This document shows, one piece after another, positions 1,697 through 30,762 of a stretch of 32,000 bases of DNA. This stretch comes from Deinococcus radiodurans R1 = ATCC 13939 = DSM 20539 (lineage in GTDB: Bacteria > Deinococcota > Deinococci > Deinococcales > Deinococcaceae): NCBI RefSeq assembly GCF_000008565.1, contig NC_001263.1, positions 1,664,676-1,696,675 of the forward strand. Reading direction: 5' to 3'. Both the position numbers and the translations under genes were made by a program. Each line of letters opens with the position of its first letter. Within the stretch, counting starts at the first letter, position 1. The notes beneath the pieces are model-generated. The model saw nothing but the letters and a program-made list of their open reading frames with translations. It was not told the origin of the DNA and did no database searches.

Positions 1697-2017
1697 ATGA
1701 ACGCGCTGGTCTTGCTCGCTCCCCTGCCCCTCGCCCTGCTGCTCGGCAGCGCCGCCCTGCCTCCGAGCGGCGTGCAAGTCGTCAACCACAGCGGCGCCGG
1801 GGTGCAGAACGTGCGGGTCTGCCGCGCGGGCGAGTGCTGGACCAAAGACCGGCTGGCGAGCGGAGAGCGTTGGCTGGTCACGTCCGAGGCAGGGCAGGCA
1901 CCCGTGCGACTGACGGTGGGCGGAGCACCAGCAACGGGCCAAGTTACTGCGCAGCGAGGCCGGGGCGTGCAACTGATGCTCGAACGTGACAGCCGGGCCG
2001 CCGCCGGGCGACAATAG
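1697..2017 (+). CDS. hypothetical secreted protein (signal-peptide-like N-terminus)
   Basis: ATG is preceded by GGGAGG. Hydrophobic N-terminus MNALVLLAPLPLALLLGSAA. High third-position GC. No family recognised. Confidence 0.5.
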   Translation: MNALVLLAPLPLALLLGSAALPPSGVQVVNHSGAGVQNVRVCRAGECWTKDRLASGERWLVTSEAGQAPVRLTVGGAPATGQVTAQRGRGVQLMLERDSRAAAGRQ

Positions 2018-2047
2018 GCCGCGTGACCGTCCTCCCAACCGCCGCTG

Positions 2048-2078
<31 letters not shown>

Positions 2079-2096
2079 AGCGTGGCGGCAACGGCC

Positions 2097-2273
2097 ATGA
2101 AAGGTCTGCGCTTTCGCCCAGGCGAACTGCGCCGCTCCGAGGTGCCGCGCACCAACCTGCTGCCGGGCGCCGGACAGCCGGCCCGTGCCCGGCGTGAGGA
2201 CCGGTGGCGGGCGTGGCTGCTGGTAGGCCTCAGCGTGTGCCTGCTGGCGCTGCTGGGCGTCACGTTGCTGTAG
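2097..2273 (+). CDS. hypothetical small membrane-anchored protein (58 aa)
   Basis: Internal ATG of ORF 1986-2273. C-terminal hydrophobic helix WLLVGLSVCLLALLGVTLL. GC3-rich codons. No homology recognised. Confidence 0.3.
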   Translation: MKGLRFRPGELRRSEVPRTNLLPGAGQPARARREDRWRAWLLVGLSVCLLALLGVTLL

Positions 2274-2326
2274 CTCTGCGCGCCCCGGCGCCTCACCCCG
2301 TCATCCCATCTGGCAAACTGACCGCC

Positions 2327-2821
2327 ATGACCGACCGCAGCGACCGTTCGCAGCTCGCCTTTGCCCGCCTGCTTCCCCGGCTGTTCCGGGGCGGCCAGGC
2401 CTACGTGGGCGTCGAAGCCACCCTCAGCGACCTCAGCAGCGAGCAGGCCGCGCAGCATGCCGGGGGGCTGCCGCACAGCGTGGCCGAGCTGCTGGCGCAC
2501 GTAAACTGGTGGAACCGCTGGATGCTCGACATCATCGAGATGGGGCAAGCGCTCCCCTACCCCCCCCACGCCGCCGACACCTGGCCGCAGGTGGGTGCGG
2601 GCGACTGGGGTAACGTCAAGAACGAGTTTTACGAACTGCTCGCCCGCATCGACACCCACGCCGCCCGGCCCGACCTCGCCAGCCCCGTCAACCACGAGGA
2701 AACGATTGGCGAACTGCTCGCCGATTTCGCCCTGCACACGGCGCACCACTTCGGCCAGATCATCAGCGTGCGGCAGGCGCTGGGGGCGTGGCCGCCGGCG
2801 GGGGGCGGGGACACCTGGTGA
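2327..2821 (+). CDS. DinB/YfiT-like metal-dependent hydrolase family protein
   Basis: Start is the ATG at residue 42 of ORF 2204-2821. His-containing DinB helices are present (LLAHVNWW, HTAHHFGQI). Confidence 0.75.
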   Translation: MTDRSDRSQLAFARLLPRLFRGGQAYVGVEATLSDLSSEQAAQHAGGLPHSVAELLAHVNWWNRWMLDIIEMGQALPYPPHAADTWPQVGAGDWGNVKNEFYELLARIDTHAARPDLASPVNHEETIGELLADFALHTAHHFGQIISVRQALGAWPPAGGGDTW

Positions 2822-3309
2822 GCGAGCAGCCTGCCCAGGATTTTGCGAACGCCGCCGCGCAACTGTATCTGGGCGGCGTAGCCAATGTGACCTGGGAACG
2901 GGCGATAAGCGATCTGAGCGCAGCGGACGCCGGGCGCCGGCCCGCGGGGTTGCCGCACAGCGCCGCGCAAATAGTGGCGCATGTGCAGTTCTGGCAGCAC
3001 TACCTACTGGCGGTCATAGCCGGTGAAAACCCACCTGCCGTCGCCCACGCGGCTGAGGGCTGGCCCGCCGGCGAACTCCCAGCAGGCGAATGGGAAGCAC
3101 TCAGAGACCGCTTTTTGCGGGACGCCCAGCGGCTGCGCGACCTGACGCTGGACGCTTCATTGACCGCCTCGCCTGACCGCAAAGGCCGTCCTTACGCGGT
3201 AGCGCTGACCAACAGCGCCGGCCACAGCGTCTATCACCTGGGGCAGGTGGTCACGGTGCGGCAGGCGCTGGGCTTGTGGCCCCCAGTAGGGGGTGGCGCG
3301 ACATGGTGA
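2818..3309 (+). CDS. DinB/YfiT-like family protein (tandem paralogue)
   Basis: GTG 2818-2820 overlaps the upstream TGA (GTGA, 2818-2821). An ATG at 2788 is an alternative start. Same architecture as the upstream gene (IVAHVQFW, GHSVYHLGQV, and both end in LG.WPP.GGG.TW). Confidence 0.7.
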   Translation: MSEQPAQDFANAAAQLYLGGVANVTWERAISDLSAADAGRRPAGLPHSAAQIVAHVQFWQHYLLAVIAGENPPAVAHAAEGWPAGELPAGEWEALRDRFLRDAQRLRDLTLDASLTASPDRKGRPYAVALTNSAGHSVYHLGQVVTVRQALGLWPPVGGGATW

Positions 3310-4153
3310 GCGTGACCGAACTCAATGCCGGCAACTCCAGCCGCGCTTCACATGTCTGGCGGGTGGACGACGGCCAGCGCAGCGAGATTTACCGCCGCTC
3401 TTGGTGGACCACACCGGAAGTCAGCGCCTTCATGCTGGGGCTGGGGCAGCTGTTCGGGGTGGACCCCCGCGACCTGCACGCCACCGAATCGGCTTACGGG
3501 TTCTGGCGCGAGCTGGGCGTGTGGACCGTGCCGCAGACTACGGCCTGACCGAGTTCAGGGACGCTCCTGCCTTGCGGGTAGAATACGTGTCCGGTGACCC
3601 GAATGGCAGAACCTTCGCGGAGGCCGACACCCGGCTGTTAGGGCGCCAGATTGCTCAGGTGCATCAGCAAGCCGCCAGCTTTTTTGGTGACGTGTCGGGC
3701 CAACGCCGCCAGCCGCTCGAGCAGTTTTACGTCCGGGCGCTGGAAACCGTGCGGGCCACCGCGCCCCGTTATGCGCCGCAGAACTGGGCCGGGCACTGGG
3801 ACACAGTGGAGCGGGTCTTCGCTGCGGTACCCCCTCCCCGACAAGCCGCGCCCATGCTGCTCGACTGGAACGAAAGCCAGTTCGTGTGGCGCGGCGGGCA
3901 ACCGTACGCCCTGGTAGACGTAGAAGCCTCAGCAACAGCGCCGCCCGAACTGGACCTGACCTTCTGGGAATTGCTGCTGCCTGCCGGTGCCCCAGCTCAG
4001 GCGTTTCAAGCCGGTTACCGCGAGGTGCGGCCCTGGCCCGACCTGAACCCGCACCGGGCCGCCTGCCGCCTCATTTTGCTGGCACTGGAATCGGAAGGCA
4101 CCCGCGACGCTGCGCAGTGGCTGGCTCAACCGGCAGTTCTCGAGACGGCCTGA
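3303..4153 (+). pseudogene. kinase-fold (aminoglycoside/choline phosphotransferase-like) protein, reading frame broken about 3500-3546
   Basis: The N-terminal lobe is in the frame of ORF 3276-3548 (MVSVTELNAGNSSRASHVWRV...) and the rest is in the frame of ORF 3293-4153 (..YGLTEFRDAPALRVEYVSGD...LVDVEAS..ELDL). Together they give one ~283-aa protein if one base is added. ATG 3303 overlaps the stop of the upstream DinB gene. Confidence 0.45.
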
Positions 4154-5781: not shown

Positions 5782-7343
5782 ATGGGGCGGAACGTAGCGG
5801 CGGAATACAACAAAGGCACCTTGGGCGAGTTTCTCCGCCTCTCGCCGCGAGACGTGCAGCAGGCGCGGGCCGAGCGGCGCCCTGAGCTTGACCGGGTGGC
5901 CCTGGCCGCTGCCCTGCGCGAATACCACCGCGACCTGGGCACGCTGGACGCGGGCGTCGAGGCATTGCTGACGCGGCTCTCCCACCCCGAATCGCGCGTC
6001 GTTGTGACTGGGCAGCAGGCCGGCCTGCTCACCGGCCCCGCCTACAGCGTCCACAAGGGCGCGGGCGCGGCACTTCTCGCCCGGCAACTCGATGAGGAAG
6101 ACACCCCGGTGGTCGCCGTGTACTGGGTCGCCAGTCAGGACCACGACGCCGAGGAAGTCGCCAGCACCACGCTGCTCGACCTCAACGAAGACCTGCACCG
6201 CCTGACCCTCGACGTGCCGCCCGGCGTGCCGGTGGGCCGGGTGACGTGGCGCGAGGAGTGGACCGCCGAGGTGCTGGCGCTGCTTGACCGCTTCGAAGCT
6301 CCCACCGAGTACAAGGACGCCGTTCGCGCACGGATAGAGCGGGCCATCGCGGGCGGCGAGCGCCACAGCTACGCCGACGTGTTCGCCCGCCTCGTTCATG
6401 GGCTGCTCGCCCCCGCCGGGCTGCTGGTCCTCGACCCGCTGCACCCCGCGCTCGCCCGGCTGATGGCCCCGGCGCTTGCGCGCGAGCTTGAGCAGCCGCT
6501 CGCTTCCTCGGCGCGCATCGAGGACGCTGCCGAGCGTCTCAGCGCTGCCGGGTTCACGCCGCAACTGCGCCGCCCGGCGGGCGCGACCAATCTGTTTGTC
6601 GAGGAAGACGACAGCCAGCGCCGCCTGCTGCGCTTCGATGGGCAGAGCTTCAGCACCGAGACGCACCGGTATACCCGCGCCGACCTGCTTGCGCTGCTGA
6701 ATGCCGACCCCTCCCGTCTGACCCCCGCCGCAGGCTGCGCCCGGCGATTCAGGACACGCTGCTGCCCACCCTCGCCTTCGTCGTCGGCCCCGGCGAAATC
6801 GCGTATGGAGCGCAACTCAAAAACGTGTACCCGCTGCACGGCTTGCAACAACCCCTACTGTGGCCGCGCCTGAGCGTGACCTGGCTGGAACCCAATGTCG
6901 CCCGCTTGCTGCGCCGCCTCCGCGCCAGCGTCGCCGAGGTGCAGGCCGACCCGGCGGGCGTGCTGGGCCGCGCCCTGGCCGCCGAGCGGGACGCCGGGGC
7001 CGTGAGTGCCGAACGCCTTCAGAGCATCGAGGCCGAGCTGGAGCGGCTCATCGGCGACCTCGCGGCCCTCGACCCCACCCTGGTCGGTGCTGCCGAGCGC
7101 ACCCGCAAACGGGCCCTGCCGCGCGTCGCGCACCTTCAGCGCCTCGCCGTGAATGCCCTCGCCCGCGCCGAAAATGAGCGCAGCGGTCAGCTCACCCGTC
7201 TGCAAAAGCACCTGCTGCCCAACGGCACGCCCCAGGAACGTGAAATGAACTTCCTGACTTACCTGCTCAAGCACGGCGACACCCCGCTCCGGCAACTGCT
7301 GGCGCTGGACGCGGGGTTCGTAGGAGAAGTCGAGATTCCGTAA
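5782..7343 (+). pseudogene. bshC: bacillithiol biosynthesis cysteine-adding enzyme BshC, interrupted by an apparent 1-nt frameshift near 6734
   Basis: ORF 5782-6873 carries the N-terminal signature VVTGQQAGLLTGPAYSVHK. After ..SRLTPAAG the conserved continuation LRPAIQDTLLPTLAFVVGPGEIAYGAQL..LLWPR is in the adjacent frame (codons from 6735, same frame as ORF 6825-7343). Confidence 0.8.
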
Positions 7344-7657: not shown

Positions 7658-8451
7658 TGCCCCAGAATCTTGCTGAGGAACTGCCGCGCCCGCTCGTGTT
7701 GCGGGTTCTGGTAGAAGGCCTCGGGCGTCGTGTCCTCCACGATGTTGCCCTGGTCGAAGAACAGGATGCGGTCGGCCACTTCGCGGGCAAAGCCCATTTC
7801 GTGAGTGACGACCAGCATGGTCATGCCGGTGCGGGCGAGTTCCTTCATCACGTCAAGGACTTCCTTGATCATCTCGGGGTCGAGGGCCGAGGTCGGCTCG
7901 TCGAACAGCATGATCTTGGGTTCCATCGCCAGAGCGCGGGCAATGGCGACGCGCTGCTGTTGCCCGCCCGAAAGCTGCGCGGGGAACTTGTAGGCCTGCT
8001 CCTCGATGCCCACGCGCCGCAGCAAATCCAGGCCGCGCGCCTGCGCCTGCGCCTTGTCCACGCCGCGCACACGGGTGGGGGCCAGGGTGATGTTGTCGAG
8101 CACCGTCAGGTGGGGAAACAGGTTGAACGACTGAAAGACCATGCCGACCTCGCGGCGAATGGCATCGAGGTTGCGGGCGCCCTGAAGCGGCAGGCCATCC
8201 ACCGTAATGGAGCCGCCGTCGTGGGGGTCGAGCGCATTGATGGTGCGGATAAAGGTGCTTTTGCCGCTGCCCGACGGCCCGATGATGACGACCACTTCAC
8301 CCTGGCGCACGGTCAGGTTGACGCCGCGCAGGGCGTGAAAGGTGCCGAAGTGCTTCTGCACGTTCTGCGCCACGATGATCGGCTCGCCCACCGTGCGGGC
8401 AGAGACGGCCACCGCGCCGGCAGCGGGGTCAGAGGAAAGGGGAGCAGTCAT
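7654..8451 (-). CDS. polar amino acid ABC transporter ATP-binding protein (GlnQ-like)
   Basis: Walker [10 protein letters not shown], signature LSGGQQQR, Walker [13 protein letters not shown]-loop VVTHEMGFA. Confidence 0.9.
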
Positions 8452-8465
8452 GGGCGGGATTCTAA

Positions 8466-8493
8466 AGCGTTGCCGGGGCAGCGTTGCTGGGGC
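8466..8493. repeat. abutting tandem direct repeat, 2 x 14 nt (AGCGTTGCCGGGGC / AGCGTTGCTGGGGC)
   Basis: 13 of 14 positions are identical. It lies 15-42 nt upstream of the ABC ATPase ATG (8451), in the divergent intergenic region. Confidence 0.6.
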
Positions 8494-8672
8494 GAGGCCA
8501 CCCGGCGGCCTGACTTTGCAGACGAAAACCCTTCGCTGGCAGCGCTTCCAGCATCATCAGGCCGCTGTGCTAGCATCGGCGGCGACCACACCCCAGGATA
8601 CGTCCCAGCGCAACCGACCCGGCCCCCGGCCCCGACTGCCCTGTGCGTGCCCTGTCTTCAACGGAGGAACCC

Positions 8673-9632
<960 letters not shown>

Positions 9633-9680
9633 GGTCTAACCGTCTGAGGGCCTCACTGTCTTAGAATGCCCTCTTCCACC

Positions 9681-9717
9681 GGGCCAGTCCCTTTTGTTTC
9701 GAGACTGGCCCTTTTTT
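9681..9717 (+). terminator. intrinsic terminator/attenuator between the TRAP binding-protein and permease genes
   Basis: Perfect 9-bp stem GGGCCAGTC (9681-9689) / GACTGGCCC (9703-9711), followed by TTTTTT (9712-9717). Confidence 0.7.
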
Positions 9718-9740
9718 CTTCCCCCAAGCATGAGGACAGT

Positions 9741-10289
9741 ATGAGTGATCCCACCAAACCGATTTCATCCGACCCCGCGCTGTCGCCGCCCGGCCAGGAG
9801 ATGACCGAGGGCGAGCGCCGCGCCCTGGAAATGGTCGAAGCCGCCGAGACGGGCGGGCGCAAGCTCCTCGGCTGGCAGGCCGGCCTGGTCACGACCATCG
9901 CCGTCGCGTGGTGCCTGTTTCAGATGTACGCCGCCTGGAACGGCACGCTGGTGCCGACCACCCTGCGGGCGATTCACCTCGCCTTCGCTTTTGCGCTCGC
10001 CTTTCTGGTCTTTCCCTTCCGCAAGACGCCAGGGCGCCCGCAGGTCGGGATTCCCTGGGGCGACTGGTTACTGGGGCTGCTGGCGACTGGGAGCGCCGCC
10101 TACTTCGTTATCGAGTACGCCAACATCGCCGCCAACGGGGGAATCCGCGACGGGGTGCCCGCCGACTTGTGGGCTGGGAGCGCGCTGGTCGTGATGCTGC
10201 TGCTCGCGGCGTGGCGCACCATCGGGATTGCCATGCCGCTGATTTCCACGGCTTTTATCCTCTTCGCCTTCATGGGCGCCAAGGGACTC
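9741..10289 (+). pseudogene. TRAP transporter fused (DctQ-DctM type) permease, N-terminal fragment (183 codons) cut by ISDra2
   Basis: GAGGA comes before ATG 9741. The frame runs to codon CTC 10287-10289, then continues 22 IS-encoded codons to TGA 10356-10358. Joining 10289 to 12026 restores ..FMGAKGL-IKAIQTPFHGGYTW.. in frame. Confidence 0.9.
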
Positions 10290-10430
10290 TTGAACCTCAC
10301 ACGACTAAAGTCGCGTGATTCTCACTTCGCAGACCATTGCCCGCCGAAGCAGGTCTGACATAGCCTCCATGAGCGTTTAAGGTGTCTGAGATTCCCGCAG
10401 CCACCAACGCTTCACGCCGAATGTTCAGCG
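10274..10430 (-). ncRNA. TnpB guide RNA (omega RNA / right-end RNA): scaffold from the tnpB 3' end plus RE, with a 16-nt guide from flanking DNA; 5' boundary approximate
   Basis: Family knowledge plus hairpins seen by eye on the minus strand. AACGCU 10437-10432 pairs with AGCGUU 10411-10406. CAGACC 10357-10352 pairs with GGUCUG 10335-10330 and encloses CUGC-UUCG-GCGG (10352-10341). RE hairpin at 10317-10298. The scaffold ends ..GUGUGAGGUUCAA at 10290. Guide GAGUCCCUUGGCGCCC = 10289-10274. Confidence 0.7.
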
Positions 10431-11523
10431 CAGCGTTCTCGTCTCGGTCATGGGTTTCCCCACAGTTCGGGCAAGTCCATGTACGGACGGCAAGATTCTT
10501 CACTTCGGGATTCTTGAATCCGCAGTCATGACACAACTGGCTAGATGGAAAGTAGGGGCTGACTTTAGATACCAGTCGCCCGTACCACGCTGCCTTGTAT
10601 TCCAACTGCCGGATGAACTCACCCCAGCCCGCATCACTGATGCTCAGTGCAAGGCGGCGATTTTTCCGCATGTTGTCGGGTTTAAGGTGTTCGGTTCCGA
10701 TGATTTCGTACTCACGCACCAGGGAGGTGGTGAGCTTGTGAAGGAAATCCTGACGCTTATTGACAATGCGCTTGTGAATCCGAGCCAGCTTGGTTTTCGC
10801 TTTCCCGTAACGTGCGCTGCCCTTCTTCCGTCTGGACAGGGTTTGCTGAGCTTTACGAAGTCTTTTCAGGGTGGAGCGGTAATATTTCGGATTCTGTTCA
10901 TGCTTAAACCTCACGCCATCGGTCACGATGGCAAAATCCTTGATGCCGACATCCACACCCGCTGCAAACTTGGGAGCCGCAGGCAGGTAGGGAATCTCGA
11001 CTTCACAGAGAACGGACGCTTCGTAATGGCCTTCGTGAATACGGCGCACAGTGACATTCAGAATCTTCCCTTGAATATCCTGCTGGCCCTTGGTTTTCAC
11101 CCATCCCAGCTTAGGAAGTTTGAGCCTACCTTCCCCAATTTGGATGTTGTTGTTGGTGAATTGAGTCCGGTAGGACTCTCCCGTGCGCTTCTTTCTGAAA
11201 CGTGGGAATCCTACCTTTTTACCGGACTGCTTCACAGTCCGAAAGAAGTTCTTGTACGCGGTCTCAAGGTTTTTCAGCGAGTTCTGCAAAGCAAACTTAT
11301 CTACTTCCGAGAGCCAGGAGGTTTCTTCAGCCTGCTTCAGAAGGGTCAGTTCGCTACTCGTTTGCCCGTAGGTCAGTCCCTTCCCGCTTTCCTTGTAGGC
11401 CGCAATGCGACGGGCAAGGAAGTGGTTGTAGACGAACCTTGCGCTACCCAGCGTGCGGTTAATCAGTTCAGTCTGAGCCGCATTTGGGTACAGCCTGACC
11501 ACGAAAGCCTTATTCCTTATCAT
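10297..11523 (-). CDS. tnpB: TnpB, RNA-guided DNA endonuclease (RuvC-like, Cas12 ancestor class)
   Basis: 408 aa. RuvC D191 (GVDVGIKD), E278 (IIGTEHL), D361 ([10 protein letters not shown]). Zinc finger CHDCG..CPNCG. The start overlaps the tnpA stop by 14 nt. Confidence 0.97.
10298..10317 (-). other. RE subterminal imperfect hairpin (TnpA recognition structure)
   Basis: The minus strand reads CACGCGACT-TT-AGTCGTGTG, with one mismatched pair. It is followed by AGGTTCAA up to the element end. Confidence 0.8.
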
Positions 11524-11932
11524 GCTGGCTCTCTATGTATTTCTGAATCTGAGCGCGGGTGTTTTCAGAAACAGTCAGGATGCAATACGACGGGTTCCAG
11601 AGATTGCCGCCCCACAGCTTTTCTTTCAACTGCGGGTAGGCCACGAACATCCGACGTGCGGAAGCGCCTTTCAGCGCCTTCACGAAGTCGGGGATGGCTT
11701 GCTGTGGGGTTGCGCTTAGCAGGAGGTGAACGTGGTCAGGCATGACTTCCATCGTGATGACTTCCAGCCCGTTCTGAGCGGCAATGTCACGCAGGATGTC
11801 TTTCAGTCCATCAGCAACCTCACCCACCAACACCTGATGACGGTATTTCACGCACCAGATGAGGTGGTATTCAAGCTGATAGACGTAACCCCGGCCTTTC
11901 TTCATCTCAAGGGGAAGAATAACATATGTCAT
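11510..11932 (-). CDS. tnpA: TnpA, IS200/IS605-family Y1 (HUH) single-strand DNA transposase
   Basis: 140 aa. HUH motif DHVHLLL (H67/H69). Catalytic Tyr132 in QKYIESQ. Confidence 0.97.
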
Positions 11933-11961
11933 CTGGAAAAGCTAGAGGCTTCCGCTTTTCA

Positions 11962-11979
11962 TCGCCCTTTTCAGGGCGA
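11962..11979 (-). other. second LE hairpin, perfect 7-bp stem with a GAAA loop
   Basis: The minus strand reads TCGCCCT-GAAA-AGGGCGA (11979-11962). It lies between the TnpA-type hairpin and the tnpA start. Function unknown. Confidence 0.5.
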
Positions 11980-11989
11980 GAGGGGCTAA

Positions 11990-12009
11990 CTCATGACTGA
12001 AGTCACGAG
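11990..12009 (-). other. LE subterminal imperfect hairpin (TnpA recognition structure)
   Basis: The minus strand reads CTCGTGACT-TC-AGTCATGAG. It has the same GACT-NN-AGTC core and the same mismatch position as the RE hairpin. Confidence 0.8.
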
Positions 12010-12025
12010 TGTGCGCCCCTCAAGC

Positions 12026-13600
<1,575 letters not shown>

Positions 13601-13715
13601 GCGCCTGCTCTCTACGCCCGTTTCCCTGACCGGAGATGGGCGCATTTGTATTGTCCTCACGTTTGTTCAAGCTTTCATCACTTCAGGGTCAGTTTCGGGG
13701 TGCAGAGTGAGAGGC

Positions 13716-14255
13716 ATGAAAAAGATTCTTCTGGCAAGTGTGGCCGGCGCGGGTCTGCTGGCGAGTTGTGGCGGCGTGCTGACTGCTGACCCGGTGACGA
13801 ACCTCGCCGTGAGCAGCTACAGCACCGATTGGCAGCTGAACAGCGACGTGCGCGATCAAAACGGACAGGTCATCCCCAAGGGGACCTACCTGATCTGCGA
13901 CAACAAGAACACCAAGATGCAAGTCGGTGTGACCTTCCAGGGAGGGTTGCAGCAACTCGCCCTCCAGTTCAAGGGCTACAACACCGGCACCACCAAGACG
14001 GTGGCCACCAACCCCCTGAACGCCACCAACTCCTCGGGCAGCGGCACCTACGAGTACACCTTCGGTCCCAACACCGCCCCCCTGAGCGTGGGCGGCGGCA
14101 ACCTGAGTGCTCAGGCCATTATCGTCAACCCCATCACCAACGTGACTGTCAAGGGCTATACCTACGTGCGCGTTCAGGGTTATGACCTGGCTGGCAATGC
14201 CAGCAACGTCGCCACCAGCCCCACGGCTATTCCTGTCGCCGACTGCGCCAGCTAA
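13716..14255 (+). CDS. hypothetical lipoprotein
   Basis: GAGAGG comes before ATG 13716. Lipobox LLASC in MKKILLASVAGAGLLASCGG. Thr/Asn/Gly-rich mature part. No family recognised. Confidence 0.65.
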   Translation: MKKILLASVAGAGLLASCGGVLTADPVTNLAVSSYSTDWQLNSDVRDQNGQVIPKGTYLICDNKNTKMQVGVTFQGGLQQLALQFKGYNTGTTKTVATNPLNATNSSGSGTYEYTFGPNTAPLSVGGGNLSAQAIIVNPITNVTVKGYTYVRVQGYDLAGNASNVATSPTAIPVADCAS

Positions 14256-26051: not shown

Positions 26052-26711
26052 TTATTCCCCCAGATACCGCCGCAGCTCGTCGATGGAGTGCCCGGTGCCG
26101 ATGACCACCAGTTTGTCGTGGGCGCGCAGCTCGTCCTCGGCGCGGGGGGTGACTTCCACATTCCCGTTGCGGCTGACCGCGATGACCTGCACACCAAAGC
26201 GGCCCGTGAGGTTGAGTTCGCGCAGGGTGCCGCGCAGTCGCTCGTTGGCCTCGATTTCGACGATGGCGTGGTCGCTGCCGAGGTCGAGCGTGTCCACGAT
26301 GTTGGGGGTGGCGATCTGCCTGGCGAGGCGCACGCCCATGTCGTGCTCGGGCCGGATGATCAGGTCGGCGCCGAGGCGCTCGAGCACGCGCCGGGCCATT
26401 TCGTCGATCGCTTTGGTCACCACGTAGGGCGCGCCGAGGCTTTTGGCGTTCATGGTCGCCAGGATGTTGGCCTGCACGTCGGTGCCGATGGCGACGACCA
26501 CCACGTCGAAATCGCCCACCCCGATGGCACGCAGCGCCCGTTCCTCGGTGGCGTCCACGATGGCGGCGTGGGTCACCAGGTTCATGACCCGCTCGACATT
26601 TTCCTCGGTGCGGTCGATGGCGACGACCTCATGGCCCATCTCGTACAGGGTGGTGGCGACAGCGGTGCCAAAGCGGCCCAGGCCGATGACGAGGCACTGT
26701 TTAATCTTCAT
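26052..26711 (-). CDS. trkA: K+ uptake system NAD-binding (RCK) subunit TrkA/KtrA
   Basis: ATG at residue 8 of ORF 26052-26732. Rossmann motif VIGLGRFG followed by an RCK_C-like C-terminal half. Confidence 0.88.
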   Translation of the reverse strand: MKIKQCLVIGLGRFGTAVATTLYEMGHEVVAIDRTEENVERVMNLVTHAAIVDATEERALRAIGVGDFDVVVVAIGTDVQANILATMNAKSLGAPYVVTKAIDEMARRVLERLGADLIIRPEHDMGVRLARQIATPNIVDTLDLGSDHAIVEIEANERLRGTLRELNLTGRFGVQVIAVSRNGNVEVTPRAEDELRAHDKLVVIGTGHSIDELRRYLGE

Positions 26712-26740
26712 CGGGCTGAGTGTAGAGCACACTCACCGCG

Positions 26741-28117
<1,377 letters not shown>

Positions 28118-28130
28118 GGCCGCGCCGCCT

Positions 28131-29564
28131 TCACCCGATCAGGATGTCCCGGTCTGCCGGGTAGCGGGTAAGCATCTTTTCGGACGCCGGACGGCTGAAC
28201 GCCACCGCGAAAGTCAATGGCCCGATGCGCCCCAGGAACATCAGCGCGATGAGGACGGCTTCCTGCGCGGTGTTGAGCAGCGGCGTGGTGTTCATGCTCA
28301 GGCCCGCCGTGCCGAAGGCACTGACCGTCTCGAAAAAGAGTTGCAAGAACAGCACCTTCTTGTTGGTGTTGAGCAGCAGCATCAGCATGAAGCCCGCCGT
28401 GACCAGCCCCATGCTCAGCAGCCCCACCGTCATGGCACGCAGAAGCGTCTCGGTGTCGATGCGGCGGTCAAAAAGCGTGGTGTCGCGCCGCCCGCGCACC
28501 ATGCTCCACGCCGAGGCGACGATGACGTAAAAGGTGTTCGTCTTGATGCCGCCGCCCGTAGAGCCGGGGTTGGCCCCGATGAACATCCACACGATGGTCA
28601 TGAACAGCGCCGGAAAGCCCATCAGCCCGTAGTCGAGGGTGTTGAAGCCCGCCGTGCGCGGCGTCACGCTCTGAAACCACGATGCGAGCAGCTTGCCGTG
28701 CAGCGGCAGCGGCGCGAGCGTCCCCGGGTTGTTCCACTCGGTCAGGGCGAAAAACACGGTGCCGACCACCAGCAGCACGCCCGTCATGGTCAGTGAGAGC
28801 CGGGTATTCGTGCTCAGGCGGTTGCGGCGGCGGTCGCGCAGCCAGCCGAGCAGGTTGAGCTGCACCAGAAACCCCATGCCGCCGAAAATGATCAGCAGCG
28901 TGACCACCATGTTGATGAGCGGGTCGGACACGAAGCCCGTCAGGTTGGTGGAATAGAGGCTGAAACCCGCGTTGTTGAACGAGCTGATGGAGTGAAAAAT
29001 GGCGTAGTAGATGCCGCGCAGTACGCCCTCACGCGGAATGAATGCGGGCAGCAGCAGCAGCGCCCCGAGGCCCTCAAACAGCAGCGAGGTCAGCACAATG
29101 GAGCGCACCAGCGAGGTCGCGCTGCCCAGGCTGGTCGCACTCACCTGCTGCTGCGCGTTGATGCGCCCGATGACTCCCAGCCGCCGCCGCAGCGCGAGCG
29201 CGAACAGCGTGCCGAGCGTAATGATGCCCAGCCCGCCCACCTGAATCAGCAGCAGCATGACGCTCTCGCCGAACACGTTGAAGGTGCTGCCGGGGTCCAC
29301 CACCGCCAGCCCGGTCACGCACACGCAGCTCGTCGCCATGAAAAGGGCCTGGATAAAGGTGATGGACTTGCCCGCCTCGTGCGCGAACGGCAGCCACAAC
29401 AGCACGGCCCCGATGAGAATGGCGGCGGCAAAGGTCAGCGCGATGAGTTGTGGGGGCCGCAGGCGCGAGGTCCAGGGGCGGCGGGTTTCCGCCGGGCGAC
29501 CCGGTCCTCTTTGGCTGGCACTCTGGGAGGCCAGATCACGCGGGGCAGGGCCAGGACGGGTCAT
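28131..29564 (-). CDS. trkH: TrkH/KtrB-family K+ transporter membrane subunit (copy 2, paralogue)
   Basis: ATG at residue 36 of ORF 28131-29669. Same motif series (TGLAVV, QVGGLGIITLG, NNAGF, GSTGGGIKTNT). Its stop lies 13 nt before the start of copy 1. Confidence 0.85.
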   Translation of the reverse strand: MTRPGPAPRDLASQSASQRGPGRPAETRRPWTSRLRPPQLIALTFAAAILIGAVLLWLPFAHEAGKSITFIQALFMATSCVCVTGLAVVDPGSTFNVFGESVMLLLIQVGGLGIITLGTLFALALRRRLGVIGRINAQQQVSATSLGSATSLVRSIVLTSLLFEGLGALLLLPAFIPREGVLRGIYYAIFHSISSFNNAGFSLYSTNLTGFVSDPLINMVVTLLIIFGGMGFLVQLNLLGWLRDRRRNRLSTNTRLSLTMTGVLLVVGTVFFALTEWNNPGTLAPLPLHGKLLASWFQSVTPRTAGFNTLDYGLMGFPALFMTIVWMFIGANPGSTGGGIKTNTFYVIVASAWSMVRGRRDTTLFDRRIDTETLLRAMTVGLLSMGLVTAGFMLMLLLNTNKKVLFLQLFFETVSAFGTAGLSMNTTPLLNTAQEAVLIALMFLGRIGPLTFAVAFSRPASEKMLTRYPADRDILIG

Positions 29565-29576
29565 AGAACGGGGCGG

Positions 29577-29585
29577 ATTGTAGCA
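29577..29585 (-). promoter_or_regulatory. extended -10 promoter TGCTACAAT, 12 nt upstream of the trkH (copy 2) ATG
   Basis: The minus strand reads GGTGCTACAATCCGCCCCGTTCTATG. Confidence 0.45.
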
Positions 29586-29629
29586 CCGCGCCGGGCCAGG
29601 GCCGCGCGGCTCACATGGACCGACCGGGC

Positions 29630-29635
29630 TATACT
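29630..29635 (+). promoter_or_regulatory. -10 box TATACT, 8 nt upstream of the ATG at 29644 (leaderless-type promoter)
   Basis: GGCTATACTGCTCCGCTATG. No Shine-Dalgarno sequence. Confidence 0.5.
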
Positions 29636-29643
29636 GCTCCGCT

Positions 29644-30762
29644 ATGCCGCGCCCCCGTTCCAACAGCAACCCCGCCTACGCCAACCGCTCGTCTGTGGGC
29701 AAAACCAGCAAAAAGAGCCGTCCCAAGGGGGACTACCGCGCCCGGCAGCCCGCGCGCGAGTACGAACTCGACGTGCTGCCGGGGCTGGAGGAGGTGGCGG
29801 CCACCGAACTTGCGGGGGTCCCGCTCGCCCGCGATGTCCGGGGCCTGCGCTTCTGGTATCCCGGCAGCCCCGAGCGGCTGACCCGGCTCCGCTCGGCGGT
29901 GGCCGTCTACCGCATCAAGTCCTGGGACGTGCCGCGCCCGCGCGGGCTGCTCGGGCACCAGCAACTCGGCGAACTCGTCAGCTACGTGCGCGAGGTGACC
30001 GAGGTGGGCGGGCACCGCTCCTTCCGCATCGGCGCGGCGGGCAAGGAGTCACCGACCATGCAGCGGCTCGCCGAGGAACTCAGCGCGGCGCTCGGCCTGC
30101 CCCACGACCCCGAGGAAGGCGAACTGCTGCTGCGGCTGCGGCCCTCGGCAGATAGGCAGGGCGCGGACGGGCAAGGCTGGGACGTGCTCGCCCGCATTAC
30201 CCCCCGGCCCCTCTCGGCGCGGGCGTGGCGCGAGTGCAACATGGGCGGGGGGCTGAACGCCACCATCGCCTACGCCATGCATAAACTCGCCGGGCAACGC
30301 GACGAGGACCGCATCTTCAACCCCATGAGCGGCAGCGGCACCCTGCTCATCGAGCGGGCGCTGCTGGGGCCGTATGCCGCGCTCGTCGGGGTGGACATCG
30401 ACCCCGTTGCCGTGGCCTGCGCCCGCACCAACCTCAGGGCGGCGGGCAAGGAAGTGGAGGTCGCGCAGGTGGACGCGCTGCACACCGGGCTGCCTTCCCG
30501 CTCCTTTGACCTCGTCATCAGTGACCTGCCGTGGGGAGACGCCATCGGCTCGCACCAGAGCAACGAGACGCTTTACCCCGCCTTCCTCAAGGAAATGCAC
30601 CGCCTGACCAGTCGCCGGGGCCGGCTGTGCCTCCTCACCCACGAACTGCGCCTGTTTGAGCGCGTCATGCGCGAGCAGAGCGACTGGGAAGCGAAGGAAC
30701 TGTTTCAGGTCTACAGCGGCGGGCACCACCCGAAGGCGTACCTGCTGCACAAGCGGGGATAG
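29644..30762 (+). CDS. class I SAM-dependent methyltransferase of the UPF0020/THUMP-associated RNA methyltransferase type
   Basis: Motif I FNPMSGSGTLLIE and motif IV SDLPWG (NPPY-like). The ~170-aa N-terminal domain has THUMP-like layout (tentative). Confidence 0.6.
   Translation: MPRPRSNSNPAYANRSSVGKTSKKSRPKGDYRARQPAREYELDVLPGLEEVAATELAGVPLARDVRGLRFWYPGSPERLTRLRSAVAVYRIKSWDVPRPRGLLGHQQLGELVSYVREVTEVGGHRSFRIGAAGKESPTMQRLAEELSAALGLPHDPEEGELLLRLRPSADRQGADGQGWDVLARITPRPLSARAWRECNMGGGLNATIAYAMHKLAGQRDEDRIFNPMSGSGTLLIERALLGPYAALVGVDIDPVAVACARTNLRAAGKEVEVAQVDALHTGLPSRSFDLVISDLPWGDAIGSHQSNETLYPAFLKEMHRLTSRRGRLCLLTHELRLFERVMREQSDWEAKELFQVYSGGHHPKAYLLHKRG

Follow-up and report, generated by a model that had tools for sequence, protein, structure and literature searches.

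TnpB of ISDra2, an insertion sequence (IS) of the IS200/IS605 family from Deinococcus radiodurans, is the closest described system to the locus considered here. The protein co-purifies with an RNA of ~150 nucleotides (nt) from the right end of the element as a ribonucleoprotein, and the last ~16 nt of this RNA—called reRNA or omegaRNA—come from the flanking DNA (Karvelis et al. 2021, PMC8612924). Cleavage of double-stranded DNA (dsDNA) by TnpB needs both the sequence TTGAT and a guide match; with the D191A substitution TnpB no longer cleaves in vitro, and plasmid interference is lost with either D191A or E278A (PMC8612924). According to a further study, TnpB itself can produce the omegaRNA from its own mRNA by 5′ processing (PMC10278001). 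TnpA alone is enough for both excision and insertion (PMC2806898), and TnpB is therefore dispensable for transposition. For the homologues from Geobacillus, Meers et al. (2023, PMC10055086) describe the cutting of donor joints and an increase in transposon retention. Here, we analysed a stretch of 32,000 nt from D. radiodurans R1 (NC_001263.1, positions 1,664,676 to 1,696,675), hereafter called "the window". It almost certainly holds a complete and intact copy of ISDra2 in chromosome 1, the tnpB gene of which encodes the prototypical omegaRNA-guided DNA endonuclease. This finding is already known and brings no new biology (Karvelis 2021; Nakagawa 2023; Meers 2023), and it supports the interpretation given in an earlier note on the same DNA, which was written from the sequence alone.

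The element, its ends and its two genes are arranged in the window as follows.

10290-12025, minus strand: complete ISDra2 (IS200/IS605 family) of 1,736 base pairs (bp), with the left end at 12025 and the right end at 10290.
12026-12030, minus strand: TTGAT, the insertion and cleavage motif of TnpA and the transposon-adjacent motif (TAM) of TnpB, directly 5′ of the left end.
11990-12009, minus strand: subterminal imperfect hairpin of the left end, CTCGTGAC-TTCA-GTCATGAG, seen in the DNA fold; it is the TnpA binding site on the active strand.
11510-11932, minus strand: tnpA, encoding a Y1 HUH single-strand transposase of 140 amino acids (aa) with H67, H69 and Y132, by Pfam (Y1_Tnp) and PDB matches.
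10297-11523, minus strand: tnpB, encoding the 408-aa omegaRNA-guided RuvC endonuclease with D191/E278/D361 and a CCCC zinc finger, by PDB identity, Pfam, residue check and literature.

The gene is tnpB of D. radiodurans ISDra2, which encodes the first TnpB shown to cut DNA in an RNA-guided manner and one whose structure has been solved. The open reading frame (ORF), to which the earlier note had given the same identity and position, was confirmed, and its product is identical over 408/408 residues to the PDB entries 8BF8, 8EX9, 8EXA and 8H1J ("RNA-guided DNA endonuclease TnpB", D. radiodurans ISDra2; phmmer against all PDB chains, E = 8.6e-279). Judged from these alignments, the resemblance to ISDra2 TnpB is not due to chance. 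The recomputed codons are GAT at 10951-10953 for D191, GAA at 10690-10692 for E278 within the motif IIGTEHL, and GAC at 10441-10443 for D361, so that every codon coordinate previously given for the RuvC triad is exact. The residues previously named for the zinc finger are likewise exact: C331 (codon 10531-10533), C334 (10522-10524), C351 (10471-10473) and C354 (10462-10464) make up two CxxC motifs, the only ones that the protein contains, namely C331/C334 and C351/C354, the second being CPNC. Consistently, Nakagawa et al. (2023, PMC10097598), in their cryo-electron microscopy of the identical protein, assigned D191/E278/D361 to the RuvC catalytic centre and named C331/C334/C351/C354 as the CCCC zinc ligands within the TNB domain. 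Pfam detects HTH_OrfB_IS605 (PF12323, E = 7e-18), OrfB_IS605 (PF01385, E = 4e-25) and Cas12f1-like_TNB (PF07282, E = 6e-26), all three above their gathering scores. This domain order—N-terminal HTH/WED-REC, OrfB_IS605 RuvC core, and TNB zinc-finger insert—fits a TnpB protein, and so do the intact RuvC D-E-D triad and the CCCC zinc finger. With the identical protein, Karvelis et al. (2021, PMC8612924) demonstrated by experiment the activity that had been read from the sequence, that of an RNA-guided dsDNA nuclease.

The neighbouring tnpA overlaps tnpB by 14 nt. Its product matches Pfam Y1_Tnp with E = 2e-43 and the ISDra2 TnpA structures PDB 2XM3/2XQC over 140/140 residues (E = 7e-94), being identical to 2XM3, and the residues H67, H69 and Y132, which the earlier note had picked out, are all in place. 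The context of tnpB is thus that of an IS200/IS605 element, with hairpins at both ends and an adjoining Y1 TnpA.

The ends of the element are equally well defined. Its length is the published length of ISDra2, and TTGAT is the published target (PMC2806898) as well as the published TAM (PMC8612924). On the minus strand, TTGAT at 12030-12026 is followed by GCTTGAGGGG, and the element closes with GTGTGAGGTTCAA at 10290; the left junction reads TTGAT/GCTTGAGG and the right junction GGTTCAA/GAGTCC, where the slash marks the boundary. The insertion 3′ of TTGAT without target-site duplication is that of ISDra2, and TTGAT precedes the left end in every other ISDra2 copy examined. The guanine plus cytosine (GC) content is ~50-55% within the element and ~65% outside. 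As DNA, the left end (11966-12030, minus strand) folds at -14.2 kcal/mol with z = -3.6, none of the 200 shuffles (0/200) being equally stable, while the right-end hairpin CACGCGAC-TTTA-GTCGTGTG gives z = -2.4. These imperfect hairpins at the two ends are related to each other, and the left-end hairpin is kept in relatives. By its chromosomal position, the sole ground for the assignment, the copy is probably ISDra2F (DR1651-DR1652), a locus tag unconfirmed from the paper text.

Where does the guide RNA lie in this copy? Three features define it.

10290-10405, minus strand: omegaRNA (reRNA) scaffold of 116 nt, numbered -116 to -1, which covers the final 109 nt of tnpB together with the right end.
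10297-10318, minus strand: stem 4 of the omegaRNA, which is also the right-end hairpin.
10274-10289, minus strand: copy-specific 16-nt guide GAGUCCCUUGGCGCCC, from the host DNA flanking the right end, by flank comparison and Karvelis 2021.

Counting from the right end reproduces the published omegaRNA numbering: position -116 is G, the UUUA tetraloop falls at -20 to -17, and the pseudoknot bases are in place, with UUC at -5 to -3 pairing with GAA at -105 to -103. The scaffold, encoded where tnpB ends and in the right end, accordingly matches the published -116 to -1, as is found for TnpB systems. The earlier note had the coding sequence right, but the functional unit extends beyond it to the omegaRNA (10274-10405), the TAM (12026-12030) and the IS ends, and all of these parts are present.

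Relatives of the element were collected by an exact-match scan of a genome collection with a 26-mer from the right end, which returned ten relatives in all, from Deinococcaceae and from one Nostoc metagenome-assembled genome (MAG), D. radiodurans itself not being among them. The sequence 3′ of TTCAA is different in all of them; similarity among the elements ends exactly at TTCAA, and each copy has its own 3′ flank. A TnpB guide is expected to be the variable stretch that follows the right end on its 3′ side, with the TAM-flanked donor joint as its target, and the present copy agrees with this. The omegaRNA alignment, comprising 14 elements of which 12 are distinct, was tested against the RNAalifold consensus plus the published pseudoknot. 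In the 12 distinct relatives, 95.2% of the cells are paired, as compared to 28-46% when the partners are slid by 1-3 columns, and 15 pairs show compensatory changes, as compared to 0-7 in the slid controls; the observed pairing values were reached by 0/500 shuffles. These paired cells and compensatory changes argue for a constraint at the RNA level on the right end and the 3′ part of tnpB, which is seen here independently of the literature.

The guide is copied from a host gene that the element interrupts.

9741-10289, plus strand: 5′ part of the host gene, encoding a fused permease of a TRAP/TAXI transporter (DctM family); the truncated ORF reads into the IS up to 10358.
12026-13600, plus strand: 3′ part of the interrupted TRAP permease gene, identified by in-silico excision and intact alleles.
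8673-9632: gene for an NMT1_3 binding protein upstream of the TRAP permease, annotated as 319 aa (longest ORF, 329 aa).

With 10290-12025 removed in silico, one ORF of 732 aa results, or 707 aa when counted from the annotated start, and a single DctM match runs without a break through the junction. Intact 707-aa permease alleles exist at two loci, L017 (CM135933.1, 6052-8175) and L019 (a metagenome scaffold, 1826-3949), in a region that is ~95% identical. At both of these empty sites, the flanks abut with a gap of 0 and no duplicated bases, which establishes a precise insertion without duplication; the permease junction of the empty allele is CAAGGGACTC/ATCAAGGCC. Both alleles carry the exact sequence TTGATGAGTCCCTTGGCGCCC on the IS strand, namely TTGAT plus the 16-nt target, and are thereby natural empty sites with both elements of recognition. 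The corresponding 21-mer, TTGAT+GAGTCCCTTGGCGCCC, does not occur in the window in its present form and is created only by the in-silico excision. To judge from the match with the guide, this empty-site joint would be the donor joint recognised by the TnpB-omegaRNA of this copy. At the locus itself, the truncated 205-aa N-terminal ORF of the permease (9741-10358) enters the IS by 69 nt, on the strand opposite to the omegaRNA and the 3′ part of tnpB.

Other copies of ISDra2 and other assemblies of this site were compared with the window. In CP150840.1, a 6.2-kb stretch near 1.67 Mb has exactly the sequence of window positions 7797-14023. A second, identical 1,736-bp ISDra2 lies at ~1.98 Mb in CP150840.1 and also in CP050116.1 (L012/L014); it is preceded by TTGAT, has the guide GTGGTCGATCATCGAG, and splits a gene for a T2SSE-family secretion/pilus ATPase into pieces of 279 aa and 174 aa. 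In GCA_965136095.1 (CBCRWM010000001.1, L013), the left flank of ISDra2 is the TRAP locus, and the right flank lies in a SNF2-family gene and provides the guide GTTTTGTGCCTCGTCG; these mixed flanks suggest either that two IS copies have recombined or that the assembly is chimeric. In a further D. radiodurans assembly (CP094462.1, L018), the element at the same site has 1,735 bp and its TnpB is called as 401 aa, and this 1-nt indel is either a genuine mutation that inactivates the gene or a mistake in the assembly.

The right end itself extends far beyond these relatives. The last 32 nt of ISDra2 (GAATCACGCGACTTTAGTCGTGTGAGGTTCAA, window 10290-10321, minus strand) are identical, base for base, in distant elements, at positions 2502-2533 of locus L020, 4462-4493 of L009, 9808-9839 of L024 and 6340-6371 of L025. 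The 32-mer occurs in seven Clostridium botulinum/sporogenes plasmids, and the copy in pCLJ (L020) starts 37 nt after a TnpB gene whose product is ~22% identical to ISDra2 TnpB. It also occurs in the Nostoc MAG, where TnpB is 53% identical, and in two IMG/VR viral contigs of 28-33% GC, one of which encodes a TnpA 52% and a TnpB 49% identical; tblastn found no TnpB in the second. Around the 32-mer, the upstream sequence diverges and the downstream similarity ends exactly at TTCAA, and the left end of the Clostridium element, too, bears a hairpin like that of ISDra2, CCCGTGACTTTAGTCATGGG. The pCLJ TnpB (L020 1220-2464) matches the Pfam OrfB_IS605 and TNB domains; in a three-way alignment it keeps the equivalents of D191 and D361, has 0/4 of the zinc-finger cysteines, and leaves the RuvC-II glutamate unaligned. 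The 32 nt comprise stem 4 and the 3′ pseudoknot strand of the omegaRNA, and likewise the right-end hairpin and cleavage site for TnpA. The identity could therefore be due to a double constraint, since the same bases serve both TnpA and the omegaRNA. Ends common to divergent TnpB cargo are known from Geobacillus elements. That the 32-mer goes beyond such sharing of ends within a TnpA family, and is a universal 3′ guide-RNA handle read by very divergent TnpBs, seems to us unlikely; if true, either omegaRNAs would be interchangeable across phyla, or a right-end module would move horizontally between tnpB lineages.

How would TnpB act at this locus? We propose the following scheme. TnpA, the Y1 HUH transposase, would cut each end on the 3′ side of its motif, TTGAT on the left and TTCAA on the right, excise the minus-strand copy as a single-stranded circle, and rejoin the flanks to form a donor joint. 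A transcript that runs through tnpB and the right end and on into the flank would provide the RNA bound by TnpB, which probably trims the 5′ end itself. The product would be an omegaRNA of ~130-150 nt, the last 16 nt of which are the guide copied from the host flank. The monomeric TnpB-omegaRNA would then recognise TTGAT together with the 16-nt match, a combination predicted to exist only in the resealed empty site, and the RuvC site would cut both strands. Finally, recombinational repair from a sister copy still holding the element would restore the IS, and the nuclease would therefore prevent loss of the transposon, serving in homing and retention. For the present locus, we infer retention by homologous repair from the Geobacillus elements.

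The sequence holds nothing that speaks against this reading of the locus. Homing by recombinational repair was demonstrated for the Geobacillus elements and not for this locus. A scan of 10200-12100 for sigma-70 promoters and terminators returned nothing on the minus strand, and its lone plus-strand match is at chance level. No Rfam 15 family was found at gathering thresholds in the whole window, and none matches the omegaRNA. For the 247-nt region, the minimum-free-energy fold beats the shuffles by only a modest margin (z = -1.9), and a fold of this kind has no place for the pseudoknot; the covariation in the alignment of relatives was used for this reason.

The alternative that survives best, though we consider it very improbable, is that TnpB is mainly a negative regulator of TnpA transposition, acting through protein-protein or protein-DNA contact independently of RNA-guided cutting. 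In 2013, Pasternak et al. reportedly observed that TnpB lowers the measured frequencies of ISDra2 excision and insertion, which would favour such a role. That TnpB is unnecessary for excision and insertion (PMC2806898) points in the same direction. However, the cutting of donor joints destroys or re-converts the very excision products that are scored, and explains the apparent drop more simply. Moreover, experiments have established the identical protein as a nuclease that depends on both TAM and guide (PMC8612924), and the triad, zinc finger and omegaRNA are all intact in the copy in the window.

A second alternative, which we regard as hardly credible, is that the gene encodes an orphan miniature type V CRISPR effector, similar to Cas12f, for defence against phages or plasmids. 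The RuvC fold and the Cas12f1-like TNB domain form a core homologous to that of Cas12, as type V requires, and TnpB is similar in sequence to Cas12m and Cas12p structures. Against this, the gene lies within an IS bounded by TnpA-type ends, its guide is the flanking host sequence and differs at each insertion, and the protein groups by sequence with the solved TnpBs rather than with Cas12f. Tandem Repeats Finder and a repeat finder detected no spaced repeat array in the 32 kb, and type V CRISPR-Cas membership is refuted by the missing array. Pfam scans of the 30 further ORFs matched no adaptation genes of the cas1, cas2 or cas4 type and returned housekeeping families only. The statement of the earlier note that the window has no CRISPR array, cas1 or cas2 stands for the array by these two repeat searches, and for the cas genes as far as Pfam sees, since nine ORFs selected by GC content at third codon positions (GC3) have no Pfam match. 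A further six ORFs without a Pfam match run opposite to identified genes and are apparently spurious.

Decayed copies of tnpB are common in genomes. That the copy in the window is such a relic, no longer active, or else an RNA-guided repressor of the TldR kind with a dead nuclease, is scarcely worth considering even with the 1,735-bp same-site copy and its 401-aa TnpB call (L018) in its favour, because this copy has its full length, encodes a protein with 100% identity to the active one and is complete in its triad, both ends, TAM and tnpA, and because the same 1,736-bp sequence at other loci implies recent mobility. TldR proteins have lost RuvC catalytic residues and transposon context; here the triad is intact, and tnpA and both ends are present.

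Elsewhere in the window, three further observations were made. At ~6734, the window has one C fewer than CP150840.1, which splits a bshC-like gene (Rossmann-like_BshC, 520 aa in CP150840.1) into 5782-6873 and 6825-7343; the source assembly has here either a genuine frameshift or an artefact of sequencing. Two genes for TrkH-family cation transporters, at 26741-28117 and 28131-29669 on the minus strand, adjoin each other and a TrkA gene (26052-26732). They share DNA segments of 70-86% identity at a constant offset of 1,390-1,396 nt, which indicates that they are a tandem paralogue pair. Finally, a 97-nt direct repeat of 70% identity joins 2728-2824, at the 3′ end of a DinB_2-family gene (2204-2821), to 3216-3312, 488 nt downstream, and suggests a second, unannotated DinB-like paralogue in the 2.8-3.3 kb region.

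How does the locus compare with the known systems? It shares all 408/408 residues, the scaffold, the TAM, the element and TnpA with ISDra2 TnpB as described (8BF8, 8EX9, 8EXA, 8H1J; Karvelis 2021; Nakagawa 2023; Sasnauskas 2023), and there is no difference between them; the 16-nt guide alone is specific to the locus, which is how the system works. What is added here is detail at the level of the locus, namely the exact guide of this copy, the interrupted host gene, and the natural empty-site alleles with the predicted TAM and target. The TnpB/IscB elements ISGst of Geobacillus stearothermophilus follow the same logic (PMC10055086): excision by TnpA leaves a donor joint that contains the TAM and the guide match, and its cutting leads to retention. 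The host, TAM and protein sequences are different, and the retention experiment was done there and not with ISDra2 here. The guide, host gene and empty alleles of the present copy could serve as a natural test case for homing and retention in Deinococcus.

The earlier note had described a Cas12-type nuclease core. In favour of this description, Pfam Cas12f1-like_TNB matches ISDra2 TnpB, and residues 240-373 (RuvC-II to RuvC-III) match the solved Cas12m structure 23VU (phmmer, E = 2e-9); as to the likeness to Cas12f in particular, a single-sequence phmmer search reached no Cas12f chain in the PDB at E <= 10. Cas12p gives a weak phmmer match (E = 0.04). The likeness to Cas12m, Cas12p, TranC and TnpB-like (Fanzor-type) proteins of eukaryotic viruses spans RuvC-II to RuvC-III (23VU, 2e-9; 9JFO, E = 2e-35; 9B0L, E = 1e-10), whereas these proteins are larger, have extra domains, and are either CRISPR-associated or of non-bacterial origin. 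Cas12f (type V-F, PDB 7C7L) shares with TnpB the WED/REC/RuvC/TNB order, the DED triad, the CCCC zinc finger and a pseudoknotted scaffold (PMC10097598). In contrast, Cas12f is a dimer with a CRISPR RNA (crRNA) and a trans-activating crRNA, while TnpB is a monomer with one long RNA (PMC10097598), and by the scans of the window the ISDra2 TnpB locus has neither a CRISPR array nor adaptation genes. TnpB is an ancestor-like relative of Cas12, and ISDra2 TnpB is the example on which experiments were founded and a compact genome editor in wide use—an RNA-guided nuclease that is recognisable from sequence alone.

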